A program made the position numbers and the translations under genes. Below, piece after piece: positions 5,079-60,379 of a DNA stretch of 64,000 nt (position 1 is the first letter of the stretch; each line of letters starts with the position of its first letter). Source of the stretch: an uncultured Gemmatimonadota bacterium (GTDB taxonomy: Bacteria > JAAXHH01); contig OX638340.1 in assembly GCA_951812955.1 (NCBI GenBank), positions 896,001 to 960,000 on the forward strand, in the 5' to 3' direction. The notes under the pieces are model-generated. The model saw nothing but the letters and a program-made list of their open reading frames with translations. It ran no database searches and was not told where the DNA came from.

Positions 5079-5132
5079 CCCCTTCATCCCGTTAATAACA
5101 ATGGCCTTGCACGGCCCGGAAAGGAACTGCTT

Positions 5133-34570: not shown

Positions 34571-34600
34571 CTCCATGCATCACGAGCGCAGGATGACTTC

Positions 34601-35725
34601 ATGATTGCAGATATCGCAGAAAAGGTCCTGGCCGGCGCCCGCCTGAGCGCCAACGACGGACGCCGTCTGTTCCGGCACCCGAACGTTACAGAACTGGGCA
34701 TGTTGGCCGACCACGTGCGTCGACGGAAGCACCCCGAACCGGTAGTGACATACAATATCGGCCGTAACATCAATTACACCAACGTGTGCTGGGTGCGGTG
34801 CAAGTTTTGCGCTTTCTACCGCCCGCCGGGCGATGGCGAAGGATACACGCTCCCAGACGAGGAGATTTTCGCCAAGGTCGAGGAACTGATCGACGTCGGG
34901 GGTGACGCGGGGGAGTCCTGCGAGATCCTCATGCAGGGCGGACTCAATCCCAGGCTGAAGATCGACTATTATGAAACCCTCTTCTCGGAAATCACCCGTC
35001 GCTATCCCGCGGCCTATCTCCATTCGCTTTCCGTAGCGGAAATCGTTTACCTCGCCCATATCTCCCGGATCTCGGTCGAAGAAGCGCTGGTCCGTCTGCG
35101 CGCGGCTGGATTGAAGTCCCTCCCGGGCGCCGGCGCCGAAATCCTAGACACCGAAGTCCGCGACGCCATCGCCTTCCGTAAGGAAACGGTTCAGGAGTGG
35201 TTGGACGTACACAGCCTGACCCATCGGCTGGGCATGAAATCGACGGCGACCATGATGTTCGGATCGGTGGAAACCGTCGAGCACCGATTGAATCACCTCC
35301 TCCGTGTTCGCGAAGTACAGGACGAGTCGCTCGCACGCCACGACGGTTACTTCACGGCATTTATCGCCTGGAGCTTCCAACCCGAAGGCACCGAACTGCC
35401 CGATACGCGAAAGGCTACGGGATACGATTACCTGCGGACAGTAGCCATTGCCAGGCTTATGTTGGACAACATAGAGAACATCCAGGCTTCCTACGTAACG
35501 CAGGGACCGAAGATCGCGCAGATCGCTCTCGGTTACGGCGTGAACGATTTCGGCAGCACCATGATGGAAGAAAACGTCATCAGCGCCGGCGGCACGAGTT
35601 TCGTGATGCCCACCCCGGAGATCGAGCGGCTGATCGGCGACGCGGGGTTTATTCCGCGCCGGCGCAACACGCGGTATGAATTCGTAGAAAACGGCACTCC
35701 CGCAAATCATGAATCCGCAGTATAG
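34601..35725 (+). CDS. radical SAM enzyme of the MqnE/MqnC family, paralog 2
   Basis: 374 aa with CWVRCKFC motif and N-terminus GARLSANDGRRLF, paralogous to the upstream gene. Confidence 0.75.
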   Translation: MIADIAEKVLAGARLSANDGRRLFRHPNVTELGMLADHVRRRKHPEPVVTYNIGRNINYTNVCWVRCKFCAFYRPPGDGEGYTLPDEEIFAKVEELIDVGGDAGESCEILMQGGLNPRLKIDYYETLFSEITRRYPAAYLHSLSVAEIVYLAHISRISVEEALVRLRAAGLKSLPGAGAEILDTEVRDAIAFRKETVQEWLDVHSLTHRLGMKSTATMMFGSVETVEHRLNHLLRVREVQDESLARHDGYFTAFIAWSFQPEGTELPDTRKATGYDYLRTVAIARLMLDNIENIQASYVTQGPKIAQIALGYGVNDFGSTMMEENVISAGGTSFVMPTPEIERLIGDAGFIPRRRNTRYEFVENGTPANHESAV

Positions 35726-35859: not shown

Positions 35860-36675
35860 ATGGTCTCTAAAACCCGTCTTAACGCCGTGAGTTTTCTGAA
35901 TACCAGGCCCTTGACCTATGGCCTGGAACGCGGAGGCCGGGATCACGGATTCGAAATCCTCTATGATATCCCCTCCGTATGCGCCAGGCAGGTGAGGACG
36001 GGCGAAGCCTCGGCGGGCGTCATTCCCAGCATCGAATACGCACGCAGTGCGGTACCTTACTCAATCGTTCCCGAGGTATCCATCGCATCCAACGGTCCAG
36101 TCGCCAGCATTCTACTGTTCCACAGGGTGCCGGTCCGGGGCATCCGAAAGGTCGCGATGGATGTGAGTTCCCGGACAGCCGCGGCCCTGGTCCATATCGT
36201 CCTGTATGAGCGGTACGGCCTGGAAATCGAATCGGTCGACCACCCGCCGGACGTATCTGCGATGCTTGAACGGGCGGACGCGGCCCTGGTCATCGGCGAT
36301 CCTGCCCTGGAGAATACGAACCGGCCCGAACCCCGTCTGGACCTGGGGCAGGCATGGCGGGAACTGACCGGGTTGCCTTTTGTGTACGCCTTCTGGGCGG
36401 GGAAGGATGGTGGTCTCACGCCCGGCGAGGTCGAACTGCTGATCGCGTCGAAGAACCAGGGGATGTCCGCCTTCGACGAGATCGCCGAAGTTCACGCGAG
36501 GGACCGCTCACATCCGACTTCGTACTACGCGTCGTACCTCAGCGATAACCTGGTTTACGACCTGGGAGAAGAGGAACAACGAGGACTCATGGAGTTTTAC
36601 GGGATGGCCCATGTTCGCGGCCTGATCCCGTACGTACCGGAATTGCGTTTTTATCCGCGTCAAGGAAGGAGATGA
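35860..36675 (+). CDS. MqnA/MqnD-family protein (PF02621, futalosine-pathway menaquinone biosynthesis)
   Basis: 271 aa with the N-terminal SFLNTRPL motif typical of MqnA-like periplasmic-binding-fold enzymes. Confidence 0.7.
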   Translation: MVSKTRLNAVSFLNTRPLTYGLERGGRDHGFEILYDIPSVCARQVRTGEASAGVIPSIEYARSAVPYSIVPEVSIASNGPVASILLFHRVPVRGIRKVAMDVSSRTAAALVHIVLYERYGLEIESVDHPPDVSAMLERADAALVIGDPALENTNRPEPRLDLGQAWRELTGLPFVYAFWAGKDGGLTPGEVELLIASKNQGMSAFDEIAEVHARDRSHPTSYYASYLSDNLVYDLGEEEQRGLMEFYGMAHVRGLIPYVPELRFYPRQGRR

Positions 36676-37637
36676 TCATGGCATCGGCAACAACGGTCGG
36701 CATCGGCACGGGAAGCAACCGCCGCGAGAACGTGCGCGTGGCGGTGGAACGCTCCGCCCCGCAATTGGCCTCCCTCATGGGGGAAGAGGTCATGCTCAAG
36801 CCTAATTTCCTCTCCGGCACCAACCCGGTGGTATGCACCCACCCGGACGCGGTCCGCGGCGTGCTGGACGTCATCATGACCCTGCCGGAGAAACCGCGCC
36901 GGGTACTGATCGCAGAGGGCGGCAATGAATCCGTGCCGGGAGAGTGCTTCCGTCACATGGGATACACCGACATCCCGGACGAATACGACATCCCCATCGA
37001 ACTGGTGGACCTGAACCAGGAGACCAGGTGGCGAAATACCCGGGTGTACATGGTCGACGGCACCTGGACTACGGTCAGGATGCCGCGTACCGTGCTGGAC
37101 TGTCCCTGCGTTATCTCGGTCGCCGTGGCCAAGACCCATGACGGCGCCATGGTTACCCTGGCGCTGAAGAATCTCATCATGGGTACGATATTGAAGAAAG
37201 ACCGAATCAAGGTCCATGGCTATACGACCCACCACGACCGGCGCCATCCTCCGGAAGCCCGGGCGCTCAGCAGGAACCTGATCCGCCTCGCCCGCCACCT
37301 CTACCCCCACTACAGCGTGGTGGACGGTACGGTCGGCATACAGGGTAACGGTCCAGGGGGAACTGACACCGTGCCGCTGGGCCTGGCGGCGGCCGGGGAG
37401 GACACCATCGCCGTGGACGCCGTCATTTCAAAGGCCATGGGATTCGAACCATTGGAGGTGGGAACGGTATTCTACGGGGACGCAATCGGCCTGGGCGTGG
37501 GCGATCTGGAACGCATCTGCGTGAACGGCGGACGGCTGGATGAACTTGCCCTGTCCTTCAAGGGGCATGAATCCATCGATCTGCAGCGTCAGTGGGCTTT
37601 CGAAGGCGCGTGGGAATCGGCGGCGGTCGGCGGTTGA
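36672..37637 (+). CDS. DUF362 domain protein
   Basis: 321 aa. The ATG at 36672 overlaps the mqnA/D stop by 4 bp (ATGA), suggesting translational coupling. The last 7 codons plus stop are copied into the downstream 22-bp repeat array. Confidence 0.6.
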   Translation: MIMASATTVGIGTGSNRRENVRVAVERSAPQLASLMGEEVMLKPNFLSGTNPVVCTHPDAVRGVLDVIMTLPEKPRRVLIAEGGNESVPGECFRHMGYTDIPDEYDIPIELVDLNQETRWRNTRVYMVDGTWTTVRMPRTVLDCPCVISVAVAKTHDGAMVTLALKNLIMGTILKKDRIKVHGYTTHHDRRHPPEARALSRNLIRLARHLYPHYSVVDGTVGIQGNGPGGTDTVPLGLAAAGEDTIAVDAVISKAMGFEPLEVGTVFYGDAIGLGVGDLERICVNGGRLDELALSFKGHESIDLQRQWAFEGAWESAAVGG

Positions 37638-37712
37638 AACGGCGGCGGTCGGCGGTTGAAACGGCGGCGGTCGACGGTTGAAACGGCGGCGGTCGACGGT
37701 TGAAACGGCGGG
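37618..37712. repeat. tandem repeat, 22-bp unit CGGCGGCGGTCG(G/A)CGGTTGAAA, about 4.3 copies
   Basis: Near-perfect copies at 37618, 37640, 37662 and 37684 plus a partial. The array begins within the last codons of the DUF362 gene and includes its stop, and fills the convergent gap to the minus-strand aminotransferase. Confidence 0.85.
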
Positions 37713-37737: not shown

Positions 37738-39006
37738 TCAATGCCCCGGCAGGACATCTGGGACGCGCAGCACCTCTTCTTCCGTGTTGTAGAAGTGCGG
37801 TGAAATGCGAATGCCACCCCCGCGGCGGGCGCCGATAATCTGGTGGCTTCGCAACGTTCGATGCAGGTCTTCGGTCTCGTGGACCGGGCTGTCGAAGGTC
37901 ACGATACCCGACCATTCGGACTCGCCCCGTGGACTCAGGACGCGGAAGCCCGAGTCGCACAGGGCTTCGGCCAGTCGGTCGGTCAACTGGCGCAGCCTCT
38001 CCTGTACAACGTCGATACCCACCTCCAGCAGCAGTTCCAGCGAAGCCCCCAGCGCGTGTATGCCCAGCGTGTTGTGGGATCCGCATTCGAAGCGGCGCGC
38101 CGTCGGCGCCGGGGTCGGATCGTAGACGTCGTAGTTGCCCGCATTAGCCACCGAATTCCAACCCACCTCGTAGAGCCTCAACTGCTCGGTCATGTGTGGC
38201 GCGCAGTAGAAGATGCCGATCCCTTCGGGACTCAGAAGCCATTTGTGTCCATCGGCCGTGAGGATGTCGATATTCATCGCATCCACGTCAACCGGAGTCT
38301 GACCGAGGGATTGTATGGCGTCGACGACGAAACAGACGCCCTTTTCCCGGCATAGAGCGCCGATCGCAGCAATGTCGTTGCGGAATCCGTTACCGTACTC
38401 GACGTGGCTGATGGAGACTGCGCGCGTCCTGGAATCGATCCTGTCCGAGATCGCATCCACCGTGAGACGGCCGTCCACGGACTTGACCATCCGCGTTTCC
38501 ACTCCGTCTCGCGAGAGATTAAGCCACGGATATACGTTGGATGGAAATTCGAGGTCGTTCAGGACCACGTTGTCGCCCCTGCGCCAGTCGATGCCGTTGG
38601 CGGCAAAACAGAGCCCTTCCGTGGTATTCTTGACAAATGCGATCTGACTGGGATCGGCGTTGATCAGCCTGGCCGACCGGGACCGGGCGGTCTCGATAGC
38701 CGATTCCCAGTCGCGGTAGTTGGAGGCGGCGTACTCGCTGAAATCCGCTGCATAGGCTCGCACGGCCTCGAAGGCGCGGCCGGGCAACGTGCCGACCGCA
38801 GCGTGGTTCAGGTAGGTACAGTGGTGGACAACAGGAAATTCCTGGCGGATGCGGTCCAGGTTCAATAGAGGCCGTTCCGGTTCTGCGGGAAGGAGCAGGT
38901 TGGTGACTGCCGCCGATTGATGCGAAGCCGGGATCGATTCGAAAGCGGTCCGATCAGAAACTTGCCGCGGCGTCCTCCGTCGAGTCGAAAATATTGAATA
39001 CGGCAT
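37738..39006 (-). CDS. class V aminotransferase-fold PLP-dependent enzyme (cysteine desulfurase/IPN-epimerase-like)
   Basis: 422-aa ORF with YLNHAAVG N-terminal motif and PLP-lysine context (DGHKWL). The annotated ATG start overlaps the STAS gene by 53 bp, so the true start may be a downstream non-ATG codon. Confidence 0.7.
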   Translation of the reverse strand: MPYSIFSTRRRTPRQVSDRTAFESIPASHQSAAVTNLLLPAEPERPLLNLDRIRQEFPVVHHCTYLNHAAVGTLPGRAFEAVRAYAADFSEYAASNYRDWESAIETARSRSARLINADPSQIAFVKNTTEGLCFAANGIDWRRGDNVVLNDLEFPSNVYPWLNLSRDGVETRMVKSVDGRLTVDAISDRIDSRTRAVSISHVEYGNGFRNDIAAIGALCREKGVCFVVDAIQSLGQTPVDVDAMNIDILTADGHKWLLSPEGIGIFYCAPHMTEQLRLYEVGWNSVANAGNYDVYDPTPAPTARRFECGSHNTLGIHALGASLELLLEVGIDVVQERLRQLTDRLAEALCDSGFRVLSPRGESEWSGIVTFDSPVHETEDLHRTLRSHQIIGARRGGGIRISPHFYNTEEEVLRVPDVLPGH

Positions 39007-39286
39007 CCAGTCGGGTTACGACGACGAGCACGTTGTGCGTGCGTTCGCTCAGGTTGGCCAGCCTCAGGTCGCCTCCGGCCTCGCGGAGGGTCTTGGCGCT
39101 GCCTACGAGCGCGCCGACACCGGAACTGCTGATGAGGTTCAACCTGCCGAGATCTACTACGGCTCCGGTCGTACCTTCGGACTTCAACGCCCTTACACGA
39201 TCGTGGAAGGCGGTCACTTCGGGATCGCCCAGGAAGCTGCCAACGAGTTCGATAACCGGTACTCCGTTAATCCTGCGTTCGTTCAT
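38954..39286 (-). CDS. STAS-domain protein (anti-sigma-factor antagonist-like)
   Basis: 110 aa from MNERRINGVPVIELVGSF... with a SpoIIAA-like pattern and a conserved Ser region (SSSGVGALV). The 237-aa ORF in the track is over-extended. Confidence 0.6.
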   Translation of the reverse strand: MNERRINGVPVIELVGSFLGDPEVTAFHDRVRALKSEGTTGAVVDLGRLNLISSSGVGALVGSAKTLREAGGDLRLANLSERTHNVLVVVTRLDAVFNIFDSTEDAAASF

Positions 39287-39420
39287 TACACGTCCCCTTC
39301 GTCTGTACGCTGCTGAAGCGAAAACCGGCCTTTTGAATGTGCCATCATTAAACACCTCGTATTCGGTTTCCGCAAGGATAAATTGCGCGGGGGCAGGTAG
39401 ACCCGTCCGGGGCATTGGTG

Positions 39421-39474
39421 CGGCAGGGACGCGGCAGAGCAGCGGCACGGCAGGGACGCGGTGTGCACGACGGC
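39421..39474. repeat. 27-bp tandem duplication (CGGCAGGGACGCGG... x2, second copy diverged at its 3' half)
   Basis: The 14-bp core CGGCAGGGACGCGG occurs at 39421 and 39448, just downstream of the iorA-like stop. Confidence 0.5.
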
Positions 39475-39504: not shown

Positions 39505-41199
39505 TCACGGATTCGACGCGAAAACGGCGGTCTCGGCGCCCGCGGCGCTGTATCCCGGGCAGAACCCCGCCTCGATGTAGGGACAGGGACTCCGGGCGAT
39601 GATCACGCGGATACCTGCCTGGCGCAGGCCCTTGCCGATCACGTCTCGTGTCCGGACTTCGTCCCACGGATCGACGGTTTCGTTCAGCGAGACCGGACAG
39701 GCTCCCACGATATCGTCTATACTAAGCGCCGTCGTCTCGTGGCCCAGTTCGGTTCCGCCCAGGTTGGGTGTACCCTGGAACCCGGACAGGGCCGTCGTGG
39801 CGTTGTCCAGTATGAGGATGAGCAGATCCGACCCCTGGTGGACCACATTGAACAGCGCGTTTGCGCTCAGGTGGAAGAAGTCGGAATCCCCGACGACGGC
39901 AATCACCGGGTCGGTCACGCCGGACAGAACGAGACCCGATGCGATTCCGATGCTCGAACCCATGGAATACTTCACGTCGAGCATCTCGAAGGGCGGCGTA
40001 TTGATCTTGATCGCGCAACCGGGATCGACCACGTACACCGGCGACATGCCGTATCGCGCACTCAAATCGCGCAGGATTTCGAAAACCGGTGTATAGGGGC
40101 AGTTCGACGGCAGTCCGGCCTCGCTGGGCAGGTACTTCTGTTCGTCTTCCGGCGAGAAGTCTCGGTCGGGTTTATAACCGGGGACGAAACCGGCCAGGGA
40201 CTCCGCGATCTGCCAGCGGAACAACTCCCCTTCCCGCGGCACGGCCCGGTCGTGCTTGCCGCTGACCGGCGTCGATATCTTCGCATCATAGGCAACCGAC
40301 TTGATCAACGTTTCCAGAAAGGGCTCGTTCTCTTCCAGTACCAGGGTTTTCTCCGTCGAACGTAGAAATCCGGTGATCTGGTCGGCGGGCAGCGGCCACA
40401 GGGTGGACAGCTTGAGGATGGACAGACCGGAAGTGTCCGCCCCATGAAGCACGTCCATCAACTTGGTGTGAATTACGCCCGCGGCGATTATGCCGGTCTT
40501 TCCCGTGCCGGTTACGGTGTTGAAATCCGCCCGTTCGAAATGCCGCGCGATCGATTCGAGCCGGTCGTGCAGACGCCTGTGCAATCGGACGGCGTTTCCG
40601 GGAACCGAAATCCACCGCATGGGATGCCGTTCGAAGGCATGGGGCCGCACGTAAGTCGTACGAGGAATCTCTGGTCGTTCCAGTTCTTCTTCCATCGTGC
40701 CGAAGGATTTCGTGATCCGCACGATGAAGGGCATCTGCGTTTCGCGGGAAAGCCGGAACGCCTCCCGCGTCATTGCGATCCCTTCCGAGGGTGTCGCCGG
40801 TTCCAGCATGGGCAGTTCGCTACCCCAGGCGATCGGACGGGTATCCTGGTCGTTCTGGGAGGCCCATGCGCCCGGATCGTCCCCGAGCAGGATGACCAGC
40901 CCCGCGCCCACGTCCGTCAGGTTGGCCACCATGACGGCGTCGAGTGCGACGTTGAACCCGACGCCCTTGCACCCCATCAGGGCCGGCACCCCTCCGATGG
41001 ACGCGCCGACCGCCGTCTCAAAGGCGACCTTTTCGTTGGCGGACCATTCAACGTGCAGACCGTGACTGTCCACGAAGCCGCGCAGGAACTCGATGGTGCT
41101 GCTGCTCGGCGAACCAGGATAGCTTGTCGCCACCGCGACACCCGACTGCAGTGCGCCGTAGGCGATGGCCTGGTCACCGGTGATTCGCATCCCGGCCAC
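39505..41199 (-). CDS. indolepyruvate/2-oxoacid:ferredoxin oxidoreductase alpha-subunit-like TPP enzyme (IorA-like), apparently lacking the canonical 2x[4Fe-4S] ferredoxin domain
   Basis: 564 aa with an IorA-like N-terminus (AIAYGALQSGVAVATSYPGSPSS) and TPP region (GDSDFFH). The C-terminus carries only one CP...CPG pair, not two CxxCxxCxxxCP motifs. No iorB partner in the window. Confidence 0.65.
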   Translation of the reverse strand: MAGMRITGDQAIAYGALQSGVAVATSYPGSPSSSTIEFLRGFVDSHGLHVEWSANEKVAFETAVGASIGGVPALMGCKGVGFNVALDAVMVANLTDVGAGLVILLGDDPGAWASQNDQDTRPIAWGSELPMLEPATPSEGIAMTREAFRLSRETQMPFIVRITKSFGTMEEELERPEIPRTTYVRPHAFERHPMRWISVPGNAVRLHRRLHDRLESIARHFERADFNTVTGTGKTGIIAAGVIHTKLMDVLHGADTSGLSILKLSTLWPLPADQITGFLRSTEKTLVLEENEPFLETLIKSVAYDAKISTPVSGKHDRAVPREGELFRWQIAESLAGFVPGYKPDRDFSPEDEQKYLPSEAGLPSNCPYTPVFEILRDLSARYGMSPVYVVDPGCAIKINTPPFEMLDVKYSMGSSIGIASGLVLSGVTDPVIAVVGDSDFFHLSANALFNVVHQGSDLLILILDNATTALSGFQGTPNLGGTELGHETTALSIDDIVGACPVSLNETVDPWDEVRTRDVIGKGLRQAGIRVIIARSPCPYIEAGFCPGYSAAGAETAVFASNP

Positions 41200-41454: not shown

Positions 41455-42744
41455 ATGGCCAGAAAAAAGCAAGCTGCCAGAAAAAAGCAAGCTGAAGGAA
41501 GTAAAAAAGCAGCAGTTAAAAACAATCGAGCCATCGGGATGGCGGACACCATAGACGAATTGAAAAAGACGCTCGGTAGCACCGGTCCGGCCGAGGTGGA
41601 CAACGAGGAATACTGGCGCGCCGTGCGGGCCCAGTTTCCGTACAATGGTTCGATACGATACACCAATAACGGGACGATAGGCATCCTGCCCCACATGGTC
41701 CTGCAGGCCCAGATCGCCACCCTGAAGGAGGCGGAGGTTCAGGATGGGGATACCGGGGGCGTCGCCTATCCCGCTCCCCACGAAGCCCACGGGAAGCTGG
41801 CCGCGCTGATCAACGCGGATCCCAGCGAGGTCGCCATTACGCGGAATTCGACCGAGAGCATGAACATCATCGCCCTCGGACTCGACCTGAAACCGGAAGA
41901 CGAGATCCTGACCACGACGCACGAGCATTACGGCGGCTGGTCCTGCTGGCAGCATCGGCACGCCCTCTTCGGAAACCCGATCCGGAAACTCGACCTATAC
42001 GATCCGCCTGAAGACGAAGACGAGATCGTGGGGCTGATCGAAGAAGCCATTCGGCCGGAAACCCGCGTGCTCAGTTTCTGCCATGTCACCTGCACCACGG
42101 CCTGGCGCCTGCCCGTCAAGAAGATCTGCGCGATGGCCCGCAAGCGGGGGCTTATTACGGTCGTCGACGGCGCCCAGTCTGTGGGCATGATCGCGGTCGA
42201 CGTGAAGGACCTAGGCGGTGATTTCTACGTAAGCAGCACGCACAAATGGCTTTTTACGCCCAAAGGTACGGGCCTGTTGTACGTGGATGAGGCGGCACAG
42301 GACACGATCACGCTGGGTTACTACTCCGGAGGCGGCCGGCTGACGGCGAGGCGTTTCGAGAACAACGCGAGCCAGAGCTACGCGCCGTTCGTGGGGTTCG
42401 CCTTGGCCGTGGATTTCCACAACGCCATCGGTACCAGTCTGATCGAGGACCGCGGCGCGGCCATGGCGAAGTGGCTCAAGACCCGTCTTTCCGATATACC
42501 CGGCGTCCGTGTGTGGACACCCATGAGCCGCGGGCTGTCCGCATCCATGGTTTCCTTCTCCATCGCCGGCATGACCTCCTCCGACGTGGGTACGCCGCTC
42601 AGGGAACGGTACCGTATACACAGCCGCGGCCTGCACGAAGGCGGATATCACGGCGCCCGCATTTCCTGCGCCATGCACAACAGTTATGATGAGATGGAGC
42701 AAGTCGTTAGCGCCGTGCAAGAAATCGCGGCGAACCGGTGCTGA
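41455..42744 (+). CDS. class V aminotransferase-fold PLP-dependent enzyme with lysine-rich N-terminal extension
   Basis: Start MARKKQAARKKQA... (ATG at 41455, GGAG 8 nt upstream). IRYTNNGTIG and SSTHKW PLP-lysine motifs. An 18-bp x2 perfect in-frame repeat at 41458-41493 encodes ARKKQA twice. An alternative start lies at M(ADTID) 41539. Confidence 0.7.
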   Translation: MARKKQAARKKQAEGSKKAAVKNNRAIGMADTIDELKKTLGSTGPAEVDNEEYWRAVRAQFPYNGSIRYTNNGTIGILPHMVLQAQIATLKEAEVQDGDTGGVAYPAPHEAHGKLAALINADPSEVAITRNSTESMNIIALGLDLKPEDEILTTTHEHYGGWSCWQHRHALFGNPIRKLDLYDPPEDEDEIVGLIEEAIRPETRVLSFCHVTCTTAWRLPVKKICAMARKRGLITVVDGAQSVGMIAVDVKDLGGDFYVSSTHKWLFTPKGTGLLYVDEAAQDTITLGYYSGGGRLTARRFENNASQSYAPFVGFALAVDFHNAIGTSLIEDRGAAMAKWLKTRLSDIPGVRVWTPMSRGLSASMVSFSIAGMTSSDVGTPLRERYRIHSRGLHEGGYHGARISCAMHNSYDEMEQVVSAVQEIAANRC

Positions 42745-42808: not shown

Positions 42809-44518
42809 ATGTCCGATACTGTACTTACCATAAAAGCACTGAAGGATCAATTGGGCGAGAAGTTCGCGGAGAACGTCGTCCTTCGGATTAAGCGCGACGG
42901 AGAATACGTTGAATTCACTGGAGGAGAAGCGGCTCGACGTGCCGACGCGCTCGCCGGACTGCTGTCCTCCCTCGGGTTGCAGCCCGGCGACCGGGTCGCG
43001 CTGCTGGCGGACAACCAGCCCGAGTGGGGCGTCACCTACCTGGCCATCGTGGGACACGGGATGACGGCCGTTCCCATCGACCGCCTGTTGAAACCCGGTG
43101 AATACCAGCGGATTCTCGAGGATTCCGGGACCCGGGCGATCGTCGTGTCGGACGCCTTCCGCGATGAGTTCCATTCCATTGCGGGCTCGCTGCCCGAGCT
43201 GAAGCACGTGCTGAGTCTTGAAGAAGTCATGGCCAGCGAGACAGGTGCTCCTGCGCCGGACAACCCGGTCAGCCCGGACGATCTGGCCGTTCTGATCTAT
43301 ACCTCGGGCACTACCGGACAGCCCAAGGGCGTGATGCTTTCCCACCGGAATATCATGTCCAACGTGGTGGCCGCCAGCCAGGTCATCTCCATTTCATCCG
43401 ACGACAGCTTCGTTTCGGTACTCCCCCTTCACCACACTTTCGAATGCACCGCCGGGTTCCTCGCGCCGATATACAACGGCGCCATGGTTTCCTACGTGGG
43501 CAGCCTCAAGTCACGGGACATCGTCGATACGATGAAGGACTCCAAGGCGACCATCATGCTGGCGGTCCCGCTGCTTTACGAGAAGATGTTCCAGGGAATC
43601 ATGCGCAAGGTAGGCTCACAGCCCGCCGTCACGCGGACGGTGTTCAATCTTTTGATGGGCGCGGTGAAACTGGGCGAGAAGTTCAACAAGCGCATGGGGA
43701 CGGCCCTGTTCAGAAGCCTGCGCGACAAGGGCGGACTCGGGACCATCCGGTTCTTCGTGTCCGGCGCCGCCGCGCTTCCGCCTGAAGTGGCCACGGGATT
43801 CGATCGCCTGGGCCTTCGCATCCTGCAGGGTTACGGACTCACGGAAACCTCGCCGGTCGTTTCGGTACATCGCGTGGAGCAACCACCCAAACCCGATTCC
43901 GTCGGACCGCCCCTAAACGGCGTGGAAGTGGAAGTCGTGGACCCGGACGAAACGGGCGTGGGTGAACTCATCGTCCGGGGAGACAACGTGATGCTGGGCT
44001 ATTACAACAACCCGGAGGCCACGGCGGAGGTGCTCAAGGACGGAGCGCTGTACACCGGCGATTCGGGATGGATCGACGAGGAAGGACACCTGCACATTGC
44101 GGGGCGCCTGAAGAACGTGATCGTTACCCGGGCAGGCAAGAACATCTATCCCGAAGAAATCGAGGGGGAACTCGTCCTCAGTCCCTATATCGCCGAGGTG
44201 CTCGTCTTCGGCGCCGAAGTCCCGGACACAGGGGAAGAATACGTACGGGCGGTCGTTGTCCCCGATTTCGAGTACCTGGAAGAGGAAGGCACGCCGAACG
44301 ACGACGAAACCCTGAACACGCTCATAAACAAGGAAGTGCGGGACCGGTGCGGAAACCTTGCGGACTACAAGCGGGTCCGGGAAGTGGAGATCCGCAGGGA
44401 GGAGTTCTCCAAGACCTCGACACGCAAGATCAAGCGGTTTCTCTTCCAATCCGGACAGTCCGCACAGTCCGAGCAGTCCGGACAGGCGGCCCCGTCAGAA
44501 GAAGCTGACGGCCAATAG
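42809..44518 (+). CDS. long-chain-fatty-acid--CoA ligase-like AMP-dependent synthetase
   Basis: 569 aa from MSDTVLTIK... with AMP-binding motif LIYTSGTTGQPKGVMLSHRNI and C-terminal GYGLTE/ARK motifs. C-terminus has a 9-bp-period QSGQSAQSEQSGQ repeat (44448-44492). Confidence 0.8.
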   Translation: MSDTVLTIKALKDQLGEKFAENVVLRIKRDGEYVEFTGGEAARRADALAGLLSSLGLQPGDRVALLADNQPEWGVTYLAIVGHGMTAVPIDRLLKPGEYQRILEDSGTRAIVVSDAFRDEFHSIAGSLPELKHVLSLEEVMASETGAPAPDNPVSPDDLAVLIYTSGTTGQPKGVMLSHRNIMSNVVAASQVISISSDDSFVSVLPLHHTFECTAGFLAPIYNGAMVSYVGSLKSRDIVDTMKDSKATIMLAVPLLYEKMFQGIMRKVGSQPAVTRTVFNLLMGAVKLGEKFNKRMGTALFRSLRDKGGLGTIRFFVSGAAALPPEVATGFDRLGLRILQGYGLTETSPVVSVHRVEQPPKPDSVGPPLNGVEVEVVDPDETGVGELIVRGDNVMLGYYNNPEATAEVLKDGALYTGDSGWIDEEGHLHIAGRLKNVIVTRAGKNIYPEEIEGELVLSPYIAEVLVFGAEVPDTGEEYVRAVVVPDFEYLEEEGTPNDDETLNTLINKEVRDRCGNLADYKRVREVEIRREEFSKTSTRKIKRFLFQSGQSAQSEQSGQAAPSEEADGQ

Positions 44519-46575: not shown

Positions 46576-47193
46576 ATGACCGATAGAGATGAGGTTACGG
46601 GCGTCATCCTCGCGGGAGGAATGAGCAGCCGATTCGGTTCCAACAAGGCGCTGAGCAGGTTTGATGGAGAACGGTTGATCCTCCGGCTGTGCAAGAGGGT
46701 GGGCGCAGTGACGGACCGGATGGCACTGATCACAAATACGCCGGAAGAATACGCCTTTCTGAACCTGGATTCCCGGAAGGACCTGGTACCCCGATGTGGT
46801 CCTATCGGCGGCATCTACACCGCGCTCAAAACGGCTGAAACTCCACTGTGCCTGTGTGTCGCGTGCGACATGCCCTTCATCAGGCCGGCACTGCTGGAGT
46901 ACATGGTCGAAAGGTCGCCAGGGTACGACGTGATCGTCCCCGTACAAGACGGCCGCGAGGAACCGCTGTGTGCGGTTTACCGGAACACCTGCGTCCCGGC
47001 GATCGACAACCGGATCCAGGCAGGGAAGTACAGGATTACCGGGTTTTTCAACGAGGTTCGCGTCCTTCGCGTCGCTTTGGAAGACGCGGGGATCCATGAT
47101 GCGGATATGTTCTTCAACATCAACCGGCCGGAGGACTATGACGAGGCGTTGAAACGGCTGAACCGGCCGGAGGATCGGCGGTCGTCGCAGTGA
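46576..47193 (+). CDS. molybdenum cofactor nucleotidyltransferase (MobA/MocA-like)
   Basis: 205 aa with N-terminus GVILAGGMSSRFGSNKAL typical of MobA-like NTP transferases. The sequence does not decide between guanylyl- and cytidylyl-transferase. C-terminal NRPEDYDEALKRL/NRPEDRRSSQ duplication (39-bp period). Confidence 0.7.
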   Translation: MTDRDEVTGVILAGGMSSRFGSNKALSRFDGERLILRLCKRVGAVTDRMALITNTPEEYAFLNLDSRKDLVPRCGPIGGIYTALKTAETPLCLCVACDMPFIRPALLEYMVERSPGYDVIVPVQDGREEPLCAVYRNTCVPAIDNRIQAGKYRITGFFNEVRVLRVALEDAGIHDADMFFNINRPEDYDEALKRLNRPEDRRSSQ

Positions 47194-47244
47194 TCGCAGG
47201 GACCCGGGCACGGTGCGGAGGATTGCCGACGGACAGACCGGCAC

Positions 47245-47304
47245 GGCCTTTCAAGGCGGATAGGCCGGAGTACCGGCCATTCCGGGCGGATAGGCTACCC
47301 GCCG
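47245..47304. repeat. 30-bp x2 degenerate tandem repeat (CGGCCTTTCAAGGCGGATAGGCCGGAGTAC / CGGCCATTCCGGGCGGATAGGCTACCCGCC) in the convergent gap after mobA
   Basis: Core GGCGGATAGGC at 47256 and 47285, with a further CTACCCGCC x2 at 47295 and 47311. Confidence 0.5.
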
Positions 47305-49202: not shown

Positions 49203-49231
49203 AGATCTGGTCATCATGAGAAAGGATGGAC

Positions 49232-50737
49232 ATGGACTATAATGGATTGCAGGTCGCGACGCTCGATGAGTCTCTGAGCGACGCCATTGCCGCGCGCGGT
49301 GGCAAACCTGTGGTATCCAGGGCGGACGACACGGAGAGCCTGGATTCCTTTCTTGAAAACCTGGCACGGGACGACATCGCCGTACTGTTACTGACAGAAC
49401 CTGAACATGTCCGTGCGTTGTTCGGTCGCGCGTCCGCAACAGGGCGCGTCGAGCCCCTGCTGGATGCAGTCAGGCAAATTGCCGTGGGTTCGGCGGGACC
49501 CGCGTGCACGAAAATCTGGAGAAACCACCATCTTTCCGTCGATTTCGAACCTGACGGGACCGGCGGAGAAGCACTCGTGTCGGGCATGGCGCGCCTCGCC
49601 GCATACCTGGTCAACAAGAAACGCACCGCCGTGGACAGTGGGGTGGACACCTCGCACTGGCAACGCATCGACATGCGGTGGCATTTCGAAAGCGATCCCT
49701 ACGGAACCCGGGGCGAGTCTGCCTTCCTCCGGGCGTGCCGCCGGGAACCGACGGAATATACGCCCGTATGGCTGCTGCGTCAGGCGGGCCGATACCAGCG
49801 GGCCTATCGGGAACTGAAATCCGACCTGGATTTCCTGGACATGTGCAAGACCCCGGAACTCACCGCCGAGATCACGTTGATGGCCGTAGAACGCCTGGGG
49901 GTGGACGCCGCCATCCTATTCGCAGACATCCTCCCGCTGCTGCAACCGATGGGCTTCCACCTGGAATACGTCAAGGGACAGGGACCCGTCATTCGCAATC
50001 CGATTCGGTCGGACCGGGCCGTGGATCAACTCGAGGAGGAAGGACCGGAATCCCAGCATTTCGTTTACGAGGCCATCCGCATGGCATTGCCGGCGCTTCC
50101 ACCCCATATCCCGCTCATCGGTTTTTCCGGCGCTCCATTCACCCTGGCCGCCTATGCCATCGAGGGGCAGAGTTCGCGGGACTTCAGGCGCGTCAAGACC
50201 TTCATGTATTCCGAACCGAGGGCCTGGCATGCCTTGATGGCGAAACTGGCGAGAACCGTCACGGCCTACCTCAACGAACAGATCGAGGCGGGCGTTCATG
50301 CCGTACAGTTATTCGACAGCTGGGCAGGCTGCCTTTCGCCCGATGATTACAGGACATTCGTCCTTCCCCATACCGGGTACGTCTTCTCCAATCTGCGCCC
50401 CGGCGTTCCTTCCATACATTTCGGGGTCTGCACCGGTTCTCTGCTCGATTTGATGCGGGAGGCGGGTGGTGAGGTCATCGGGCTGGATTGGCGCGTGGAC
50501 CTGTCCGAAGCATGGCAGGACCTTGAACACGAGGTGGCGGTCCAGGGAAACCTGGATCCCATGGTCCTCTTTTCGTCCCCCGATGTAATCCGCCAGCATG
50601 CGGCGACCGTCCTGCACAAGGCCGGGGGACGTCCCGGACATGTCTTCAACCTGGGTCACGGCATACTGCCCGGCACACCGGAAGACCACGTCATCGCGCT
50701 CGTGGACGCCGTGCATGAATTGGGAATCGCTCGATGA
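49232..50737 (+). CDS. hemE: uroporphyrinogen decarboxylase HemE with an N-terminal ~150-aa HemD (uroporphyrinogen-III synthase, HEM4)-like half-domain in the same reading frame
   Basis: C-terminal ~350 aa is canonical HemE (FLRACRREPTEYTPVWLLRQAGRYQRAYR...). The N-terminal 150 aa resembles one HEM4 domain. There is no stop between the two parts, and an RBS and promoter precede the ATG at 49232. An alternative reading is a separate HemE start at M150 (ATG 49673). Confidence 0.75.
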   Translation: MDYNGLQVATLDESLSDAIAARGGKPVVSRADDTESLDSFLENLARDDIAVLLLTEPEHVRALFGRASATGRVEPLLDAVRQIAVGSAGPACTKIWRNHHLSVDFEPDGTGGEALVSGMARLAAYLVNKKRTAVDSGVDTSHWQRIDMRWHFESDPYGTRGESAFLRACRREPTEYTPVWLLRQAGRYQRAYRELKSDLDFLDMCKTPELTAEITLMAVERLGVDAAILFADILPLLQPMGFHLEYVKGQGPVIRNPIRSDRAVDQLEEEGPESQHFVYEAIRMALPALPPHIPLIGFSGAPFTLAAYAIEGQSSRDFRRVKTFMYSEPRAWHALMAKLARTVTAYLNEQIEAGVHAVQLFDSWAGCLSPDDYRTFVLPHTGYVFSNLRPGVPSIHFGVCTGSLLDLMREAGGEVIGLDWRVDLSEAWQDLEHEVAVQGNLDPMVLFSSPDVIRQHAATVLHKAGGRPGHVFNLGHGILPGTPEDHVIALVDAVHELGIAR

Positions 50738-52155
50738 AAGTCGTCGTGGTCGGCGGGGGCATAGCCGGGTTGAGCGCCGCGCACCGGCTGGCGGAAACGA
50801 AACGTCACGACCTGGAAGTGACGCTGCTGGAGCGGACGGACCGATTCGGTGGCACGATACGCACGATCGAGCTCGGCGGATGTCTGGTCGAACTGGGTCC
50901 GGATTCCTTTCTTTCGTCCAAGCCCTGGTTGACGCAACTGGCTGAGCGATTGGGCGTGGCTGATCGGATCATCGCCACTGCAACCACCCATCGCAGGTCC
51001 CACGTCGTCCATCGCGGCAAGCTGCACCCGTTGCCCGACGGGTTCCTGATGATGGCGCCTACCCGCCTCTGGCCCATGGTGACCACTTCGCTTTTTTCGT
51101 GGACGGGCAAGATCCGGTGCGCTTTGGACCTGGTACTGCCACGTTCGCGTGCAACCGGAGACGAGAGTCTGGGCGCGTTCGTCCGCCGGCGTTTCGGCGG
51201 AGAGGTGCTCGAGCGCGTCGTACAACCGCTCATCGGGGGCATCTATGCGGGAGACCCCGATAGGCTCAGCCTGAAGGCCACCATCCCGCGGTTCCTCGAG
51301 ATGGAAACCCGATACCGCAGTGTCATACGGGCCATGGTCGCACAGCGGCGCGCGGCCGCCCGGCGCGGAGGCGGTCCCACGGCCGGCAGCGGCGCGCGCT
51401 ACGGTGAACTGGTCACCTTCGACCATGGCATGAAAACCATCGTGCAGGCGTTGATGGAAAGCCTTCCGGAAGAAACGATGCGCACGCATTCCGACGTCGT
51501 GAGCCTGAGCCGCGAAGGGGACCTCTGGCGTCTGGCATGCGGCGACGGACAGCATATCGATGCGGATGCGGTCATTCTTGCCCTGCCTGCCCGAAAGGCC
51601 GCGGATCTGCTTCGCGGCATCGAAACGGGCCTTCATGATGAACTGTCGGCCATCCCCCACGCGTCGACGGCCGTCCTGAACCTCGTGTACCGGCGTTCGG
51701 ATGTGCCCCATCCCATGGACTGCTTCGGGTTTGTGGTTCCCGCGGTAGAGGAACGGGATATCATCGCCTGCACCTTCAGCAGCGTTAAGTTCCCGAACCG
51801 GGCGCCGGAGGACCACGTGCTGTTGCGCGCTTTCATCGGCGGCGCCCGGCAGCGGCACATGCTCGGTTTCGATGACGGGGAGCTGAACCGGATCGTCCGG
51901 GCGGAGCTGAAAGACCTCATGGGCATCGAAGCCGCTCCTCTTCACACCGCGCTTGCCCGGTACCCGGACGCCATGCCCCAGTACCTCGTCGGCCATAGCC
52001 GGCGCGTTGAGCGGATCGAATCACTGCTCGATCGGTATCCCGGACTTGCGTTGGCAGGCAATGCCTATGGCGGCGTGGGCCTGCCCGATTGCGTGCGTTC
52101 GGGTGAACAGGCAGCGGAGCGGGTACTGGAGATGGAGGAGAACGGCTCCCGTTAG
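50734..52155 (+). CDS. hemY: protoporphyrinogen/coproporphyrinogen oxidase (HemY/CgoX-family FAD amine-oxidase fold)
   Basis: 473 aa with N-terminal FAD motif VVVVGGGIAGLSAA. ATGA overlap with the hemE stop. The last 8 codons plus stop are tandemly copied downstream. Confidence 0.8.
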   Translation: MKVVVVGGGIAGLSAAHRLAETKRHDLEVTLLERTDRFGGTIRTIELGGCLVELGPDSFLSSKPWLTQLAERLGVADRIIATATTHRRSHVVHRGKLHPLPDGFLMMAPTRLWPMVTTSLFSWTGKIRCALDLVLPRSRATGDESLGAFVRRRFGGEVLERVVQPLIGGIYAGDPDRLSLKATIPRFLEMETRYRSVIRAMVAQRRAAARRGGGPTAGSGARYGELVTFDHGMKTIVQALMESLPEETMRTHSDVVSLSREGDLWRLACGDGQHIDADAVILALPARKAADLLRGIETGLHDELSAIPHASTAVLNLVYRRSDVPHPMDCFGFVVPAVEERDIIACTFSSVKFPNRAPEDHVLLRAFIGGARQRHMLGFDDGELNRIVRAELKDLMGIEAAPLHTALARYPDAMPQYLVGHSRRVERIESLLDRYPGLALAGNAYGGVGLPDCVRSGEQAAERVLEMEENGSR

Positions 52156-52238
52156 CAGATGGAGAAGGGCGACTTTCGCTAGCAGTTGAAGGAGCACGAC
52201 TCCTGTTCGGAGATGGAGCAGGGCGACTCTTGTTGACC
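52129..52238. repeat. 4 degenerate tandem copies of a 27-bp unit (GATGGAG-AGGGCGACT-T-GTTAGCA-like) starting in the last codons of hemY
   Basis: Units at 52129-52157, 52158-52184, 52185-52211 and 52212-52238. In the hemY frame they read EMEENGSR*, QMEKGDFR*, QLKEHDSCS and EMEQGDSC*. Three of the four keep an in-frame stop. Confidence 0.8.
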
Positions 52239-52276
52239 GACGCCGCCCGCGGGATTCATGCGTCGTGTTCCCGTTC

Positions 52277-52378
52277 TCCGGATGACATTCAATCCGTCCC
52301 CCGGTCCCGCAGCATCGTGTTCCAGCTCGCCGGATGCCATTCAAGCAGTCCCCTGGTCCCGCAGCATCGCAATCGCCG
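52277..52378. repeat. direct repeat, about 50 bp x2 (period 52 bp, about 88% identity over the 41-bp core), spanning the sulP stop codon
   Basis: R2 (52329-52378) is the 3' end of sulP on the minus strand (...AIAMLRDQGTA*). R1 (52277-52326), downstream of the stop, translates on the minus strand to a degenerate copy NTMLRDRGTD* with its own TGA. Confidence 0.7.
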
Positions 52379-53969
52379 TCTTCCGGGCTTCCTCCATGCT
52401 TCCGACCAGGCGCCAATCGGGGATGCTCCTTACGATGTCGAAGGACTTCAGTGTTTTAGATGCTGCGCCCGAGAGTCCCATCACGATCGTACCGGTTTTC
52501 TGTTCTTCGGCGACCTCAAACAGCCGTTGAATCACAAGGGCCGCACTGTCGTCCACATACTGGGTGTCAGAAAAATCGAAGATGACCACCTGGTGTTCCT
52601 TGATGTCTTCACCAATGGCCATGACCAGTTTCCTTGATGAAGCGATGGTAAAGCTACCCCTGAGAGAGACCAGACCCACCCGAGCTGTATGGGGTTCCAC
52701 ACCGGCCTGGATTCCTTCGGTGGAGAAAAACTCGCGGTCCAACAGGGGCACTGAGACCACGTTGTCGAGCTCCAGGTGTTCCAGCTGCCGGGCGTGGACC
52801 ATCCCGGCGGCGATCAGCCCGATGGCCACTGCCGTGATCAGATCGATGAAAACCGTGAGGCCCAGCGTGAGCGCCATCACCAGCAGATGTTCCCGCTGGA
52901 GACGATGAATCCGGGCGAGTACCCGCCAGTCGATGATGTTCCATCCGACCACAATGAGGATACCGGCCAGGACGGCATGGGGAACCGGCTCGACAAACCT
53001 GCCCAACCCGAGTAGAATCAACAGCAGGAACACGGCGCGCAGAACGCCTGAGACCGGAGTCTGTCCTCCCGAACGGATATTCGCCACGGTACTGACGGTG
53101 GCACCTGATCCAGGAAGACCGCCAAACAGCCCTGCCGCCATGTTGCCTATACCCTGACCCACCAGTTCCCGGTCAGGATTATGGCTTGATCCCGTGAGCG
53201 AATCCGCGATGAGGCAGGCGAGCAGACTGTCCACGGAGCCCAAAAGGGCGATAATCAGCGCGGGTTGGACCGCATACAGCAGAAACGACCAGGAAGGCAA
53301 CTGGAACTGTAGCGCGGGCAGTCCGGCCGGTATCTCTCCAATAACCGGCACGTCACTCAGCCAGAATACGCCCACCATCGTGCCGGCCAGCAAAGCCAGC
53401 AAGGGCGCGGGCACGTACCGGCTCAGCTGCCGAGGCCAGAAAACCGCCAGGACAAGGGTGACCACGGCGATGGCTACTGCGCTGAAGTTCGTGCTGTTCA
53501 ATGCATCGGGAAGGGATCGGATCGCGGCAAGTGCGCCCCCAGGGGCGACAGGCGTGCCGAGAAACGGAAGGGCCTGCATGAGGATGATGATGATGCCGAT
53601 ACCGGACATGAATCCGGATACAACCACATGGGGGGTGTAGGCGATGTATCGGCCCAAATTGGAAATACCCAGCAGCACCTGGATCGCTCCGGCGAGCATG
53701 ACAACGATCAGCGCCTCCGAGAGCGTGCTCACCTGGCTGGTGACGATTAACGCCATCGCGATCGTGACGGATGGCGCAGGACCGGAAACCACCGTCCGCG
53801 TGCCGCCGAACACTGAAGCAAAGAAACCTACCGCGATCGCGCCGTACATGCCCGCGGCCGCACCCATGCCGGACGCAACGCCAAAGGCCAGTGCGAAAGG
53901 CAATGACACCACGGCGGAGGTGAGTCCGCCGGTAAAATCACCTCTGAATGTACCCGGATCATACTTCAA
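52341..53969 (-). CDS. SulP-family sulfate/anion permease with C-terminal STAS domain
   Basis: 542 aa with a SulP-type N-terminus (FRGDFTGGLTSAVVSLPFALAFGVASG), many TM segments and a C-terminal STAS region. Confidence 0.85.
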   Translation of the reverse strand: MKYDPGTFRGDFTGGLTSAVVSLPFALAFGVASGMGAAAGMYGAIAVGFFASVFGGTRTVVSGPAPSVTIAMALIVTSQVSTLSEALIVVMLAGAIQVLLGISNLGRYIAYTPHVVVSGFMSGIGIIIILMQALPFLGTPVAPGGALAAIRSLPDALNSTNFSAVAIAVVTLVLAVFWPRQLSRYVPAPLLALLAGTMVGVFWLSDVPVIGEIPAGLPALQFQLPSWSFLLYAVQPALIIALLGSVDSLLACLIADSLTGSSHNPDRELVGQGIGNMAAGLFGGLPGSGATVSTVANIRSGGQTPVSGVLRAVFLLLILLGLGRFVEPVPHAVLAGILIVVGWNIIDWRVLARIHRLQREHLLVMALTLGLTVFIDLITAVAIGLIAAGMVHARQLEHLELDNVVSVPLLDREFFSTEGIQAGVEPHTARVGLVSLRGSFTIASSRKLVMAIGEDIKEHQVVIFDFSDTQYVDDSAALVIQRLFEVAEEQKTGTIVMGLSGAASKTLKSFDIVRSIPDWRLVGSMEEARKTAIAMLRDQGTA

Positions 53970-59153: not shown

Positions 59154-60311
59154 ATGACCATCGGCGTCCCTACTGAAACCAGTCCGGGCGAGCGGCGCGT
59201 ATCCATCGTTCCGGCCGGGGTTTCCAACCTGGTGAAGGCGGGATGCGCCGTCCGGGTCTCCGCGGGCGCGGGCCGGGAGGCGGGCATCTCGGACGCAGAA
59301 TACGAAGAAGCCGGCGCCACAGTCGTGCAGGAGCGCGGATCCGTATTCGACGAGTCCGACGTGATCGTGCAGGTAAGAGGCGGCGGCGCGAATCCCGACT
59401 CAGGCATGGCGGACGTGGAGCGATTGCGCGAGGGACAGGTGCTGATCAGTTTCCTGGAACCGTTGTCGGCCCCGGCGGAGATCAAGGCGCTCTCCAACCG
59501 GCGGGTGACCGCCTGCGCCATGGAATTCATACCGCGGACATCCCGTGCGCAAAGCATGGACGCCCTTTCTTCCCAGGCCAACATCGGGGGGTACAAGGCC
59601 GCGCTGGTAGCGGCCGAATACCTGCCCAGACTTTTCCCCATGATGATGACCGCGGCCGGGACCATAACGCCCGCCCACATTTTCGTGGTCGGCGTCGGTG
59701 TGGCCGGGCTGCAGGCCATCGCCACGTGCAAGCGGCTGGGCGCCGTGATCCAGGCCTACGACGTGCGTCCCGCCGTCAAGGAGCAGGTCCAGAGCGTCGG
59801 GGCCCGGTTCGTGGAGCTGGAACTGGATACGGCCGATTCGGAAGGATCGGGTGGGTACGCCCAGGCCATGGACGAGCAGTTCTATGCAAAACAACGCGAG
59901 ATGATGGCCCGCGTCGTATCTGAAAACGACGTCGTGATCACCACGGCCGCCGTACCCGGCAAGCCAGCGCCCGTGCTGGTTACAGAAGACATGATTAAAA
60001 GCATGCGGCCCGGCTCGGTCGTGATCGATCTCGCTGCGGAGCGGGGGGGAAACTGCGAAATCACCGAACCCGGCAGGACCGTCGTCAAGCACGGCGTGAC
60101 GCTCGTGGGCGAGGTGAATCTTCCTTCAACCGTGCCCTTTCATGCCAGCCAGATGTATTCCAACAACATCGTGAATTTCCTTAAGCTGATGATAAACGAC
60201 GGTACGCTTGACGTGGGCATCGACGACGACATCGTGCAAGGCGCAACGGTAACCCGCGACGGCGAGATCGTCAACGAGCAGGTGAGCGCCCTGCTTACCG
60301 AAGCCGGGTGA
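59154..60311 (+). CDS. pntA: NAD(P) transhydrogenase subunit alpha part 1 (PntAA, alanine-dehydrogenase-like dI domain)
   Basis: 385 aa with N-terminus IGVPTETSPGERRVSIVP and Rossmann region VVGVGVAGLQAIA diagnostic of PntAA. Confidence 0.85.
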   Translation: MTIGVPTETSPGERRVSIVPAGVSNLVKAGCAVRVSAGAGREAGISDAEYEEAGATVVQERGSVFDESDVIVQVRGGGANPDSGMADVERLREGQVLISFLEPLSAPAEIKALSNRRVTACAMEFIPRTSRAQSMDALSSQANIGGYKAALVAAEYLPRLFPMMMTAAGTITPAHIFVVGVGVAGLQAIATCKRLGAVIQAYDVRPAVKEQVQSVGARFVELELDTADSEGSGGYAQAMDEQFYAKQREMMARVVSENDVVITTAAVPGKPAPVLVTEDMIKSMRPGSVVIDLAAERGGNCEITEPGRTVVKHGVTLVGEVNLPSTVPFHASQMYSNNIVNFLKLMINDGTLDVGIDDDIVQGATVTRDGEIVNEQVSALLTEAG

Positions 60312-60379
60312 CGGGCGGAGCGACTGCGATCGAAGCCGGGTGACGAGCGGAGCACCATCGAACGAAGCGAGGAGTTCCC

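Follow-up and report, generated by a model that had tools for sequence, protein, structure and literature searches.

Why should a bacterial gene be followed, directly behind its stop codon, by further copies of its own last codons, stop included? This question is raised by hemY and sulP, two convergent genes in a 64,000-nucleotide stretch of contig OX638340.1 (assembly GCA_951812955.1) from an uncultured Gemmatimonadota bacterium. The whole stretch, which is 61% G+C and about 91% coding, is called the window below, and coordinates given without a locus name are positions in it. Each of the two genes is trailed by near-copies of its 3' end, and comparable arrays lie on other stop codons of the window and of related genomes. 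Sequence comparison suggests that such arrays are probably the fossil remains of short tandem duplications (about 17-55 bp) that recur and are filtered by selection.

The tails of hemY and sulP

The two genes and the interval between them are made up of the following parts.

50734-52155, forward strand: hemY, 473 aa, protoporphyrinogen/coproporphyrinogen oxidase family (open reading frame; Pfam Amino_oxidase, 3.3e-66; homologs named protoporphyrinogen oxidase)
52130-52237, forward strand: hemY array of four 27-bp units (Tandem Repeats Finder, TRF, and repeat search)
52130-52156, forward strand: hemY unit U1, the true C-terminus with TAG, EMEENGSR*
52157-52183, forward strand: hemY unit U2, QMEKGDFR*, in-frame TAG kept; non-coding fossil copy
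52184-52210, forward strand: hemY unit U3, QLKEHDSCS, TCG where the stop would be; non-coding fossil copy
52211-52237, forward strand: hemY unit U4, EMEQGDSC*, in-frame TGA; non-coding fossil copy
52238-52262, no strand: core of the ancestral hemY-sulP spacer, 25 nt, homologous to the flank directly after the single hemY stop in L004 and L021 (L-numbers denote the fetched loci of relatives)
52263-52314, reverse strand: sulP distal 52-bp unit, a non-coding fossil that reads MLRDRGTD* in its own frame, with its own TGA
52315-52366, reverse strand: sulP proximal 52-bp unit, the true C-terminus ...MLRDQGTA with the stop and 26 nt of 3' flank
52341-53969, reverse strand: sulP, SulP-family anion transporter with STAS domain, 542 aa (Pfam Sulfate_transp, 1.9e-81; STAS, 1.2e-8)

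The coding sequence of hemY ends in GAG ATG GAG GAG AAC GGC TCC CGT TAG, with the TAG at 52153-52155, and the 27-bp unit corresponds to the final 26 nt of the gene plus the next base. As a preliminary description of this DNA had stated, hemY is trailed by three more degenerate 27-bp copies, two of which carry an in-frame stop (TAG in U2, TGA in U4); U4 also retains the ancestral junction of TGA and flank. TRF reports this array with period 27, 3.7 copies, 68% matches and a score of 95. The sulP gene, convergent to hemY, ends in ATG CTG CGG GAC CAG GGG ACT GCT TGA (stop at 52341-52343), and its 52-bp unit is present in two copies with 85-87% identity (TRF score 165). Here the same description was right about a second copy with its own TGA but not about its extent, since the unit takes in about 8 codons, not about 12, in addition to the stop and a 3' flank of 26 nt; the identity had been put at about 88%. 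A period of 52 bp does not divide by 3, which puts the second copy in a different frame from the first. All units abut head-to-tail without a spacer and derive from local sequence. The spacer core between the two arrays holds a short inverted repeat, CGACGC...GCGTCG, which extends to 52266 and has no T-run.

Gene callers place open reading frames of 53-107 aa on the hemY-sulP arrays (52179-52340 in the window, 5189-5350 in L001 and 11288-11611 in L003, all on the reverse strand). These frames are not conserved among relatives, and it is probably the repeats that have produced them as artefacts of annotation. The 53-aa frame of the window was also considered as a small gene of the spacer and rejected: its likeness to L001 is DNA similarity only, and indels disrupt the frame in L003.

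Single-copy states and copy-number change in relatives

An exact look-up of the hemY protein of the window gave no record, and relatives were used in its place. Their hemY proteins are 94-73% identical to that of the window, and their record titles name metagenome-assembled genomes of Gemmatimonadetes or Candidatus Latescibacterota, several of the records being complete chromosomes of about 3.9 Mb. From isolate and bin names alone, we infer that these relatives come from sponge and coral metagenome bins. They were compared with the window through syntenic loci.

Comparison with orthologous loci, which the preliminary description had put forward as a means of dating the duplications, revealed that copy number varies by relative and that ancestral single-copy states exist. 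In L004 (80% identity), the hemY tail is single: it reads EMEKDDSR, then TGA, and what comes next is the flank that follows U4 in the window. The tail is likewise single in L021 (77% identity). Three units are present in L002 and four in L003, as in the window, and L001 has the first and last units plus two units of 53/54 bp with an inserted imperfect palindrome; over the relatives, the hemY copy number is thus 1, 3, 4 or at least 5 units. The second unit of L002 resembles a hybrid of U2 and U3. Orthologous units match at 24-27 of 27 positions, versus 16-21 of 27 for paralogous units within a genome. These figures place the origin of the array before the genomes split; units have since been both gained and lost. 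The hemY homologs of the clade, whose composition is given below, range from 467 to 505 aa and have variable tails.

The other side of the interval varies as well. In L021 the sulP tail is single too, and the stops of hemY and sulP lie 49 nt apart; the window has 185 nt there, which is 136 nt more, the sum of 3 × 27, 52 and 3. The 52-bp sulP duplication is common to the window, L003 and L001 and is partly present in L002, and in L013 an independent array of 17 bp × 5 runs across the sulP stop.

Two further observations concern these loci. In the other genomes, the 27-bp units lack the palindrome of L001 (GCGCCTTACGGAAGACGC, found in each of the 53/54-bp units at 5090-5205). In addition, an intact sulP is confined to the window, L003, L013, L021 and a few further relatives; close relatives have lost the gene in at least three separate deletions, each of which left remnants (L001 5250-5450; L002 11500-11600; L004 11420-11650). 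One deletion junction is common to L001, L005 and L006, and L002 has a larger deletion; what remains in L004 is the 5' end, about 170 bp of it, with a CCGGA microhomology at the joint. Copies of the sulP tail persist as fossils even where the gene has been lost.

Stop-spanning duplications in the window and in the clade

Tandem duplications were counted by TRF and by our own scan (period 17-80, identity of at least 80%), with genes called across loci by a codon-usage scorer. The clade set comprised 23 loci titled Latescibacterota or Gemmatimonadetes (526 kb, 409 genes), and the outgroup set 55 loci from Planctomycetota, Binatia and others (879 kb, 636 genes).

The window alone contains 15 tandem duplications with a period of at least 15 and an identity of at least 80%, versus 0-3 in a first-order Markov simulation. 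Seven TRF repeats of the window have a period of at least 12 and a score of at least 50; four of them lie on a stop codon where 0.3 would be expected from random placement, so that the enrichment of stop-overlapping repeats, proposed earlier as a check, holds within the window. The four top-scoring TRF repeats (DUF362, hemY, sulP and pntAA) all straddle a stop codon. In the clade loci, 49 tandem duplications were seen, versus 1 in the Markov simulation. Stop-spanning duplications number 21 among the 409 genes of the clade and 4 among the 636 of the outgroup (odds ratio 8.6, Fisher p = 8e-6), and at least one such event is present in 12 of 23 clade loci versus 4 of 55 outgroup loci. GC content is equal in the two sets (0.614 in the clade, 0.606 in the outgroup), and limiting the outgroup to loci with a GC content of at least 0.58 leaves 3 events among 470 genes. 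The stop-spanning events of the clade are spread over at least 11 different gene ends, several of them with periods that differ by genome. With the database gene calls of L085, L088 and L090, four events span a stop and none spans a start.

The placement of the TRF set, compared with random placement, is as follows.

Convergent spacers: 4 observed, 0.3 expected (13x)
Stops: 21 observed, 2.6 expected (8x)
Co-directional spacers: 4 observed, 1.0 expected (4x)
Divergent spacers: 4 observed, 1.6 expected (2.5x)
Starts: 5 observed, 2.5 expected (2x)
Gene interiors: 20 observed, 57.1 expected

The period is divisible by 3 in all ten interior events, versus 7 of the 20 stop-spanning ones. For co-directional genes the median spacer measures 27 bp; for convergent genes it is 55 bp, and for divergent genes 175-194 bp.

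Besides those of hemY and sulP, the window contains the following duplications.

37614-37711, forward strand: DUF362 array, 22 bp × 4.5, 97% matches, stop at 37635-37637 (TRF)
60299-60368, forward strand: pntAA array, 32 bp × 2.2, in the pntAA-pntAB spacer, stop at 60309-60311 (TRF)
34552-34603, forward strand: 26-bp duplication at a radical-SAM junction (more sensitive scan)
16108-16153, forward strand: 23-bp duplication at the extreme 3' end of a pyridoxal-phosphate (PLP)-dependent decarboxylase gene, 8 nt before the stop (more sensitive scan)
47244-47295, no strand: 30-bp two-copy repeat in the convergent spacer after mobA
39412-39461, no strand: weak two-copy repeat with 27-bp spacing, 3' of a POR/TPP-enzyme gene (39505-41199, reverse strand)
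41458-41493, forward strand: in-frame perfect 18-bp × 2 (ARKKQA ARKKQA) at the N-terminus of a class-V aminotransferase
44447-44499, forward strand: in-frame 9-bp repeats (SGQ/SAQ/SEQ) in the C-terminal tail of an AMP-binding enzyme, which is 6 aa longer than in L002

The 22-bp repeats after the DUF362 gene had been noticed before, at 37618-37712, and are real, with the boundaries given here; the pntAA, radical-SAM and decarboxylase duplications had been missed. The gene previously called mobA is an NTP_transf_3 gene (46576-47193), and the 30-bp repeat reported after it is indeed present in two copies, whereas the supposed duplication of its C-terminus comes down to a 14-nt exact repeat (AACCGGCCGGAGGA) at 39-nt spacing, which is weak and was not counted. 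Within the 26-bp duplication lie the stop of the radical-SAM gene at 33404-34570 and both the start and the ribosome-binding site of the radical-SAM gene behind it (34601-35725), which yields a 7-codon mini-ORF (open reading frame) between the two. In the decarboxylase gene, the second copy, in a shifted frame, replaces the last residues and supplies the present stop at 16150-16152. A further in-frame internal duplication persists at 7464-7501.

Copy number changes among relatives at these gene ends too. L090 has a single DUF362 unit (spacer of 7 bp), L088 has about two, L085-L087 have 3.5 and the window has 4.5 (spacer of 100 bp), and the protein tail WESAAVGG is conserved in all loci compared. 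Between pntAA and pntAB, L002 and L004 have a spacer of 36 bp; it measures 68 bp in L003 and the window, and L001 has one of 100 bp. At the radical-SAM junction, L090 and L085 have the ancestral arrangement of stop, 4-5 nt and ATG, and L088 has an independent array of 11-12 bp. Periods of 10, 17, 18, 30, 31, 44 and 55 are found across genomes in the convergent spacer of mobA and TP_methylase, and periods of 18 and 28 at the purT gene end. The spacer between the POR/TPP-enzyme stop and the start of the STAS gene carries a different array in each genome, such as 48 bp × about 3.9 with identical adjacent units in L085 (12526-12713) or a 34-bp array in L090 (12639-12761). Different periods at one gene end in different genomes indicate independent events.

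A few side observations were made at these genes and their neighbours. The Pyridoxal_deC decarboxylase (14727-16152, forward strand) appears frameshifted near 15480, with its N-terminal part in the open reading frame 14727-15941 and its C-terminal part in 15202-16152; this is either a pseudogene or an indel error of the assembly. The 18-bp aminotransferase duplication lies at the likely true N-terminus (ATG at 41455), and a near-identical repeat in L085 (14706-14748) indicates that it is shared rather than new. Upstream of hemY, hemE (URO-D, 49226-50737, forward strand) has an N-terminal extension of about 160 aa, and its relatives have the same length, about 501 aa; the extension gives a sub-threshold match to HemD, uroporphyrinogen-III synthase (PF02602, E = 1.6e-4, 21.3 bits versus a cutoff of 27.5), and could be a degenerate fusion. 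Finally, divergence from APA_bin_41 (L085, L006) is uneven: the STAS protein (38957-39286, reverse strand) is 100% identical, DUF362 (36672-37637, forward strand) 97% and hemY (50734-52155, forward strand) 92%, which may reflect recombination between populations or differing constraint.

Origin and meaning of the arrays

How, then, would such copies arise and persist? The duplications would, we infer, be produced by replication slippage or by microhomology-mediated template switching. Direct-repeat arms at the junctions of two arrays, namely CGAAGC (3 occurrences) for the 32-bp pntAA unit and GCATCG (first occurrence GCGTCG) for the 52-bp sulP unit, fit slipped-strand or microhomology-mediated duplication; at the perfect 18-bp duplication at 41458, the arm is merely 1 nt. 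If the duplicated segment includes the stop, everything up to the first stop would be unchanged and the protein would remain intact, the extra copy of last codons plus stop becoming untranslated 3' sequence that may drift, expand and contract. Because spacers are very short, a duplication of 20-50 bp outside the gene body must nearly always include a gene end. Within genes, frameshifting events would be purged by selection and in-frame ones would sometimes survive, and on the 5' side, events would displace promoters or ribosome-binding sites, or make upstream mini-ORFs, and would be tolerated less often. Copy-number instability between close relatives, with both gain and loss, is seen for hemY, DUF362 and pntAA. 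The lineage appears to make or keep such duplications unusually often, and the arrays look like harmless leftovers with no function of their own. The core of the preliminary description, i.e., a high rate of 20-50-bp tandem duplication, selection against disruptive events and the divergence of older arrays, is borne out by the copy numbers in relatives, the unit identities and the frame statistics. Its statement that only stop-spanning events persist was too strong: these do persist, but so do in-frame internal duplications (41458-41493, 7464-7501, 44447-44499) and intergenic ones (39412-39461, 47244-47295).

Several points weigh against this account. The hemY array is too old and diverged for microhomology arms to be assessed, and the asymmetry between 3' and 5' sides is above the prediction from target size (stops 8x and convergent spacers 13x, versus starts 2x and divergent spacers 2.5x), divergent spacers being the longest and yet holding few arrays. 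In addition, start codons from the in-house gene caller are uncertain, and the clade loci are syntenic, so that their counts are not fully independent. Explaining the asymmetry by selection requires a strong constraint on promoter regions, which is assumed. Alternatively, the mutation process itself may target gene 3' ends, which would then be true hotspots and not merely tolerant sites; candidate causes are breaks or fork stalling tied to transcription termination, supercoiling or topoisomerase action between convergent genes, or transcription-replication conflict, with repair by short templated duplications. The graded enrichment, from convergent spacers through stops, co-directional spacers and divergent spacers down to starts, is consistent with this possibility, as are the repeated and independent hits, with differing periods, at a few gene ends (mobA, sulP, hemY, the radical-SAM junction and the POR spacer) and an excess that is specific to the clade at equal GC content. 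However, repeated hits are equally expected where gene ends are simply unconstrained, in-frame duplications do occur in gene interiors and at an N-terminus, and the focal locus has no terminator-like structure; mutational targeting is an unlikely alternative. Its stronger form, in which the clade would have an unusual 3'-end-directed mutation process that places 17-55-bp duplications at the ends of transcription units and makes stops genuine hotspots, seems quite doubtful; such a process would perhaps be linked to termination, to supercoiling between convergent genes, to a missing single-strand exonuclease or to an unusual repair activity.

Explanations in which the repeats serve a purpose, or are not what they seem, fare worse. 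The copies might act as readthrough or recoding buffers, as back-up stops, or as an RNA- or protein-binding element for termination or mRNA stability, and the 27-bp hemY units do stay in frame, two of the three extra ones with an in-frame stop. Yet for 13 of the 20 stop-spanning events the period does not divide by 3 (in the window, this applies to 52, 22 and 32 bp), close relatives carrying these genes make do with one copy, and unit sequences are wholly different between loci, making a function very improbable. Readthrough of TAG was rejected in particular, as TAG is an ordinary stop here (13 of 50 genes), most arrays are out of frame and hemY U3 has lost its stop; programmed readthrough or recoding, an option in the preliminary description, falls with it, given periods that mostly break the frame and relatives with one copy. 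Folding at the arrays was no better than for shuffled sequences on either strand (z = -0.69 and +0.78), no terminator-like site was found at the focal locus and no Rfam family match anywhere in the window, and a structured RNA or intrinsic terminator was discarded on these grounds. An assembly or sequencing artefact (collapsed or expanded repeats, stutter), also raised in that description, might be suspected from the DUF362 units, which are 97% identical so that their exact copy number could be mis-assembled, and from the apparent frameshift in the decarboxylase gene of the window. Artefactual copies would be identical, though, whereas the focal units are 68-87% identical, and orthologous, diverged units recur in independent long-read and short-read assemblies from other samples; on this comparison, an artefact is excluded for the focal hemY-sulP locus and is extremely improbable as a general explanation. 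Least credible of all, to the point of being barely conceivable, is the footprint of a mobile or retro-element, such as the template/variable repeat pair of a diversity-generating retroelement, a unit akin to mycobacterial interspersed repetitive units (MIRUs) or duplications of an attachment site. A near-copy of a gene 3' end located downstream does have the layout of a template/variable repeat pair, and MIRUs overlap adjacent genes at their stop and start codons (PMC3184786, PMC12548453). But the copies are directly adjacent with nothing between them, and their units come from the local gene sequence and are found nowhere else in the window. A diversity-generating retroelement was rejected because the mismatches lack adenine specificity (A stands in the downstream copy at only 3 of the 7 sulP mismatches, and changes in the hemY units are of mixed kinds) and because none of the neighbouring genes (hemE, hemY, sulP, aminotransferase) encodes a reverse transcriptase. 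A dispersed family like MIRUs or repetitive extragenic palindromes (REP) was rejected because blastn-short of every unit against the window gave self hits and chance 11-12-mers only.

Slipped-strand tandem duplications, as known from the slipped-misalignment literature on Escherichia coli, and microhomology-mediated ones are together the closest kind of event, and give rise to bacterial minisatellites. Microhomology-mediated tandem duplications are reversible, pass through the same frame-selection filter and were detected about 20-fold less often in the E. coli genome than in fission yeast (PMC8639346). The arrays described here resemble them in being head-to-tail and tens of bp long, in the junction arms visible at two of the arrays, in gain and loss and in the frame filter, which outside genes lets duplications of any length persist, but their copies are fixed, diverged, lineage-wide and centred on stops, and this stop-spanning class is not described in that study (PMC8639346). 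With bacterial minisatellites, or variable-number tandem repeats, they share short periods, mostly unique and scattered sequences and an abundance that depends on species (PMC6749651); the survey in question does not mention the term 'stop codon', whereas the unit here is a gene's own C-terminal codons plus its stop. MIRUs are tandem units of 40-100 bp in operon spacers, whose ends overlap the flanking stop and start so that translational coupling is kept (PMC3184786, PMC12548453). The 26-bp duplication at 34552-34603 is similar in overlapping both a stop and a start, but MIRUs form one dispersed and probably mobile family of about 40-50 copies, in contrast to the local and mutually unrelated units seen here. 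The repeat pairs of diversity-generating retroelements are alike in having a second near-copy of 3'-terminal coding sequence just downstream; the present units differ from them in being much shorter and directly tandem, without adenine specificity or an adjacent reverse transcriptase. Gene 3' ends also evolve by point mutation of stops, known as stop-codon shift; C-terminal tails are weakly constrained, and a protein can acquire or shed the stretch directly behind its stop. The variable hemY tails of the clade recall this, except that the adjacent sequence here is a duplicate of the tail. In a limited literature search, no paper was found stating that tandem duplications concentrate on stop codons in a bacterial lineage. 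The signature had been called undescribed: this does not hold for the process, slippage or microhomology-mediated duplication being well known, but the lineage-wide stop-spanning pattern was not found described within that search. The pattern is one that follows from known principles through a known process, and the absence of a description is not proof of novelty.

The locus provides a dated natural series of short tandem duplications in a compact bacterial genome. It illustrates how non-coding spacers grow from near nothing, from 7 to 100 bp after DUF362 and from 49 to 185 nt between the stops of hemY and sulP, and how fossil C-termini with their own stops build up behind genes, the reading frame filtering which events survive. 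In practice, the arrays give rise to spurious small open reading frames from gene callers, such as those of 53 aa in L001 and 107 aa in L003, and some of the C-terminal variation among orthologs may stem from such duplications. Stop-spanning repeats could serve as strain markers, and their frequency could report the slippage rate of a lineage. If a 3'-directed mutation process were at work, it would keep supplying material from which new C-terminal tails could form and spacers could grow in an otherwise compact genome, and a mutational origin of the 3' bias would link the ends of transcription units to genome instability in bacteria.

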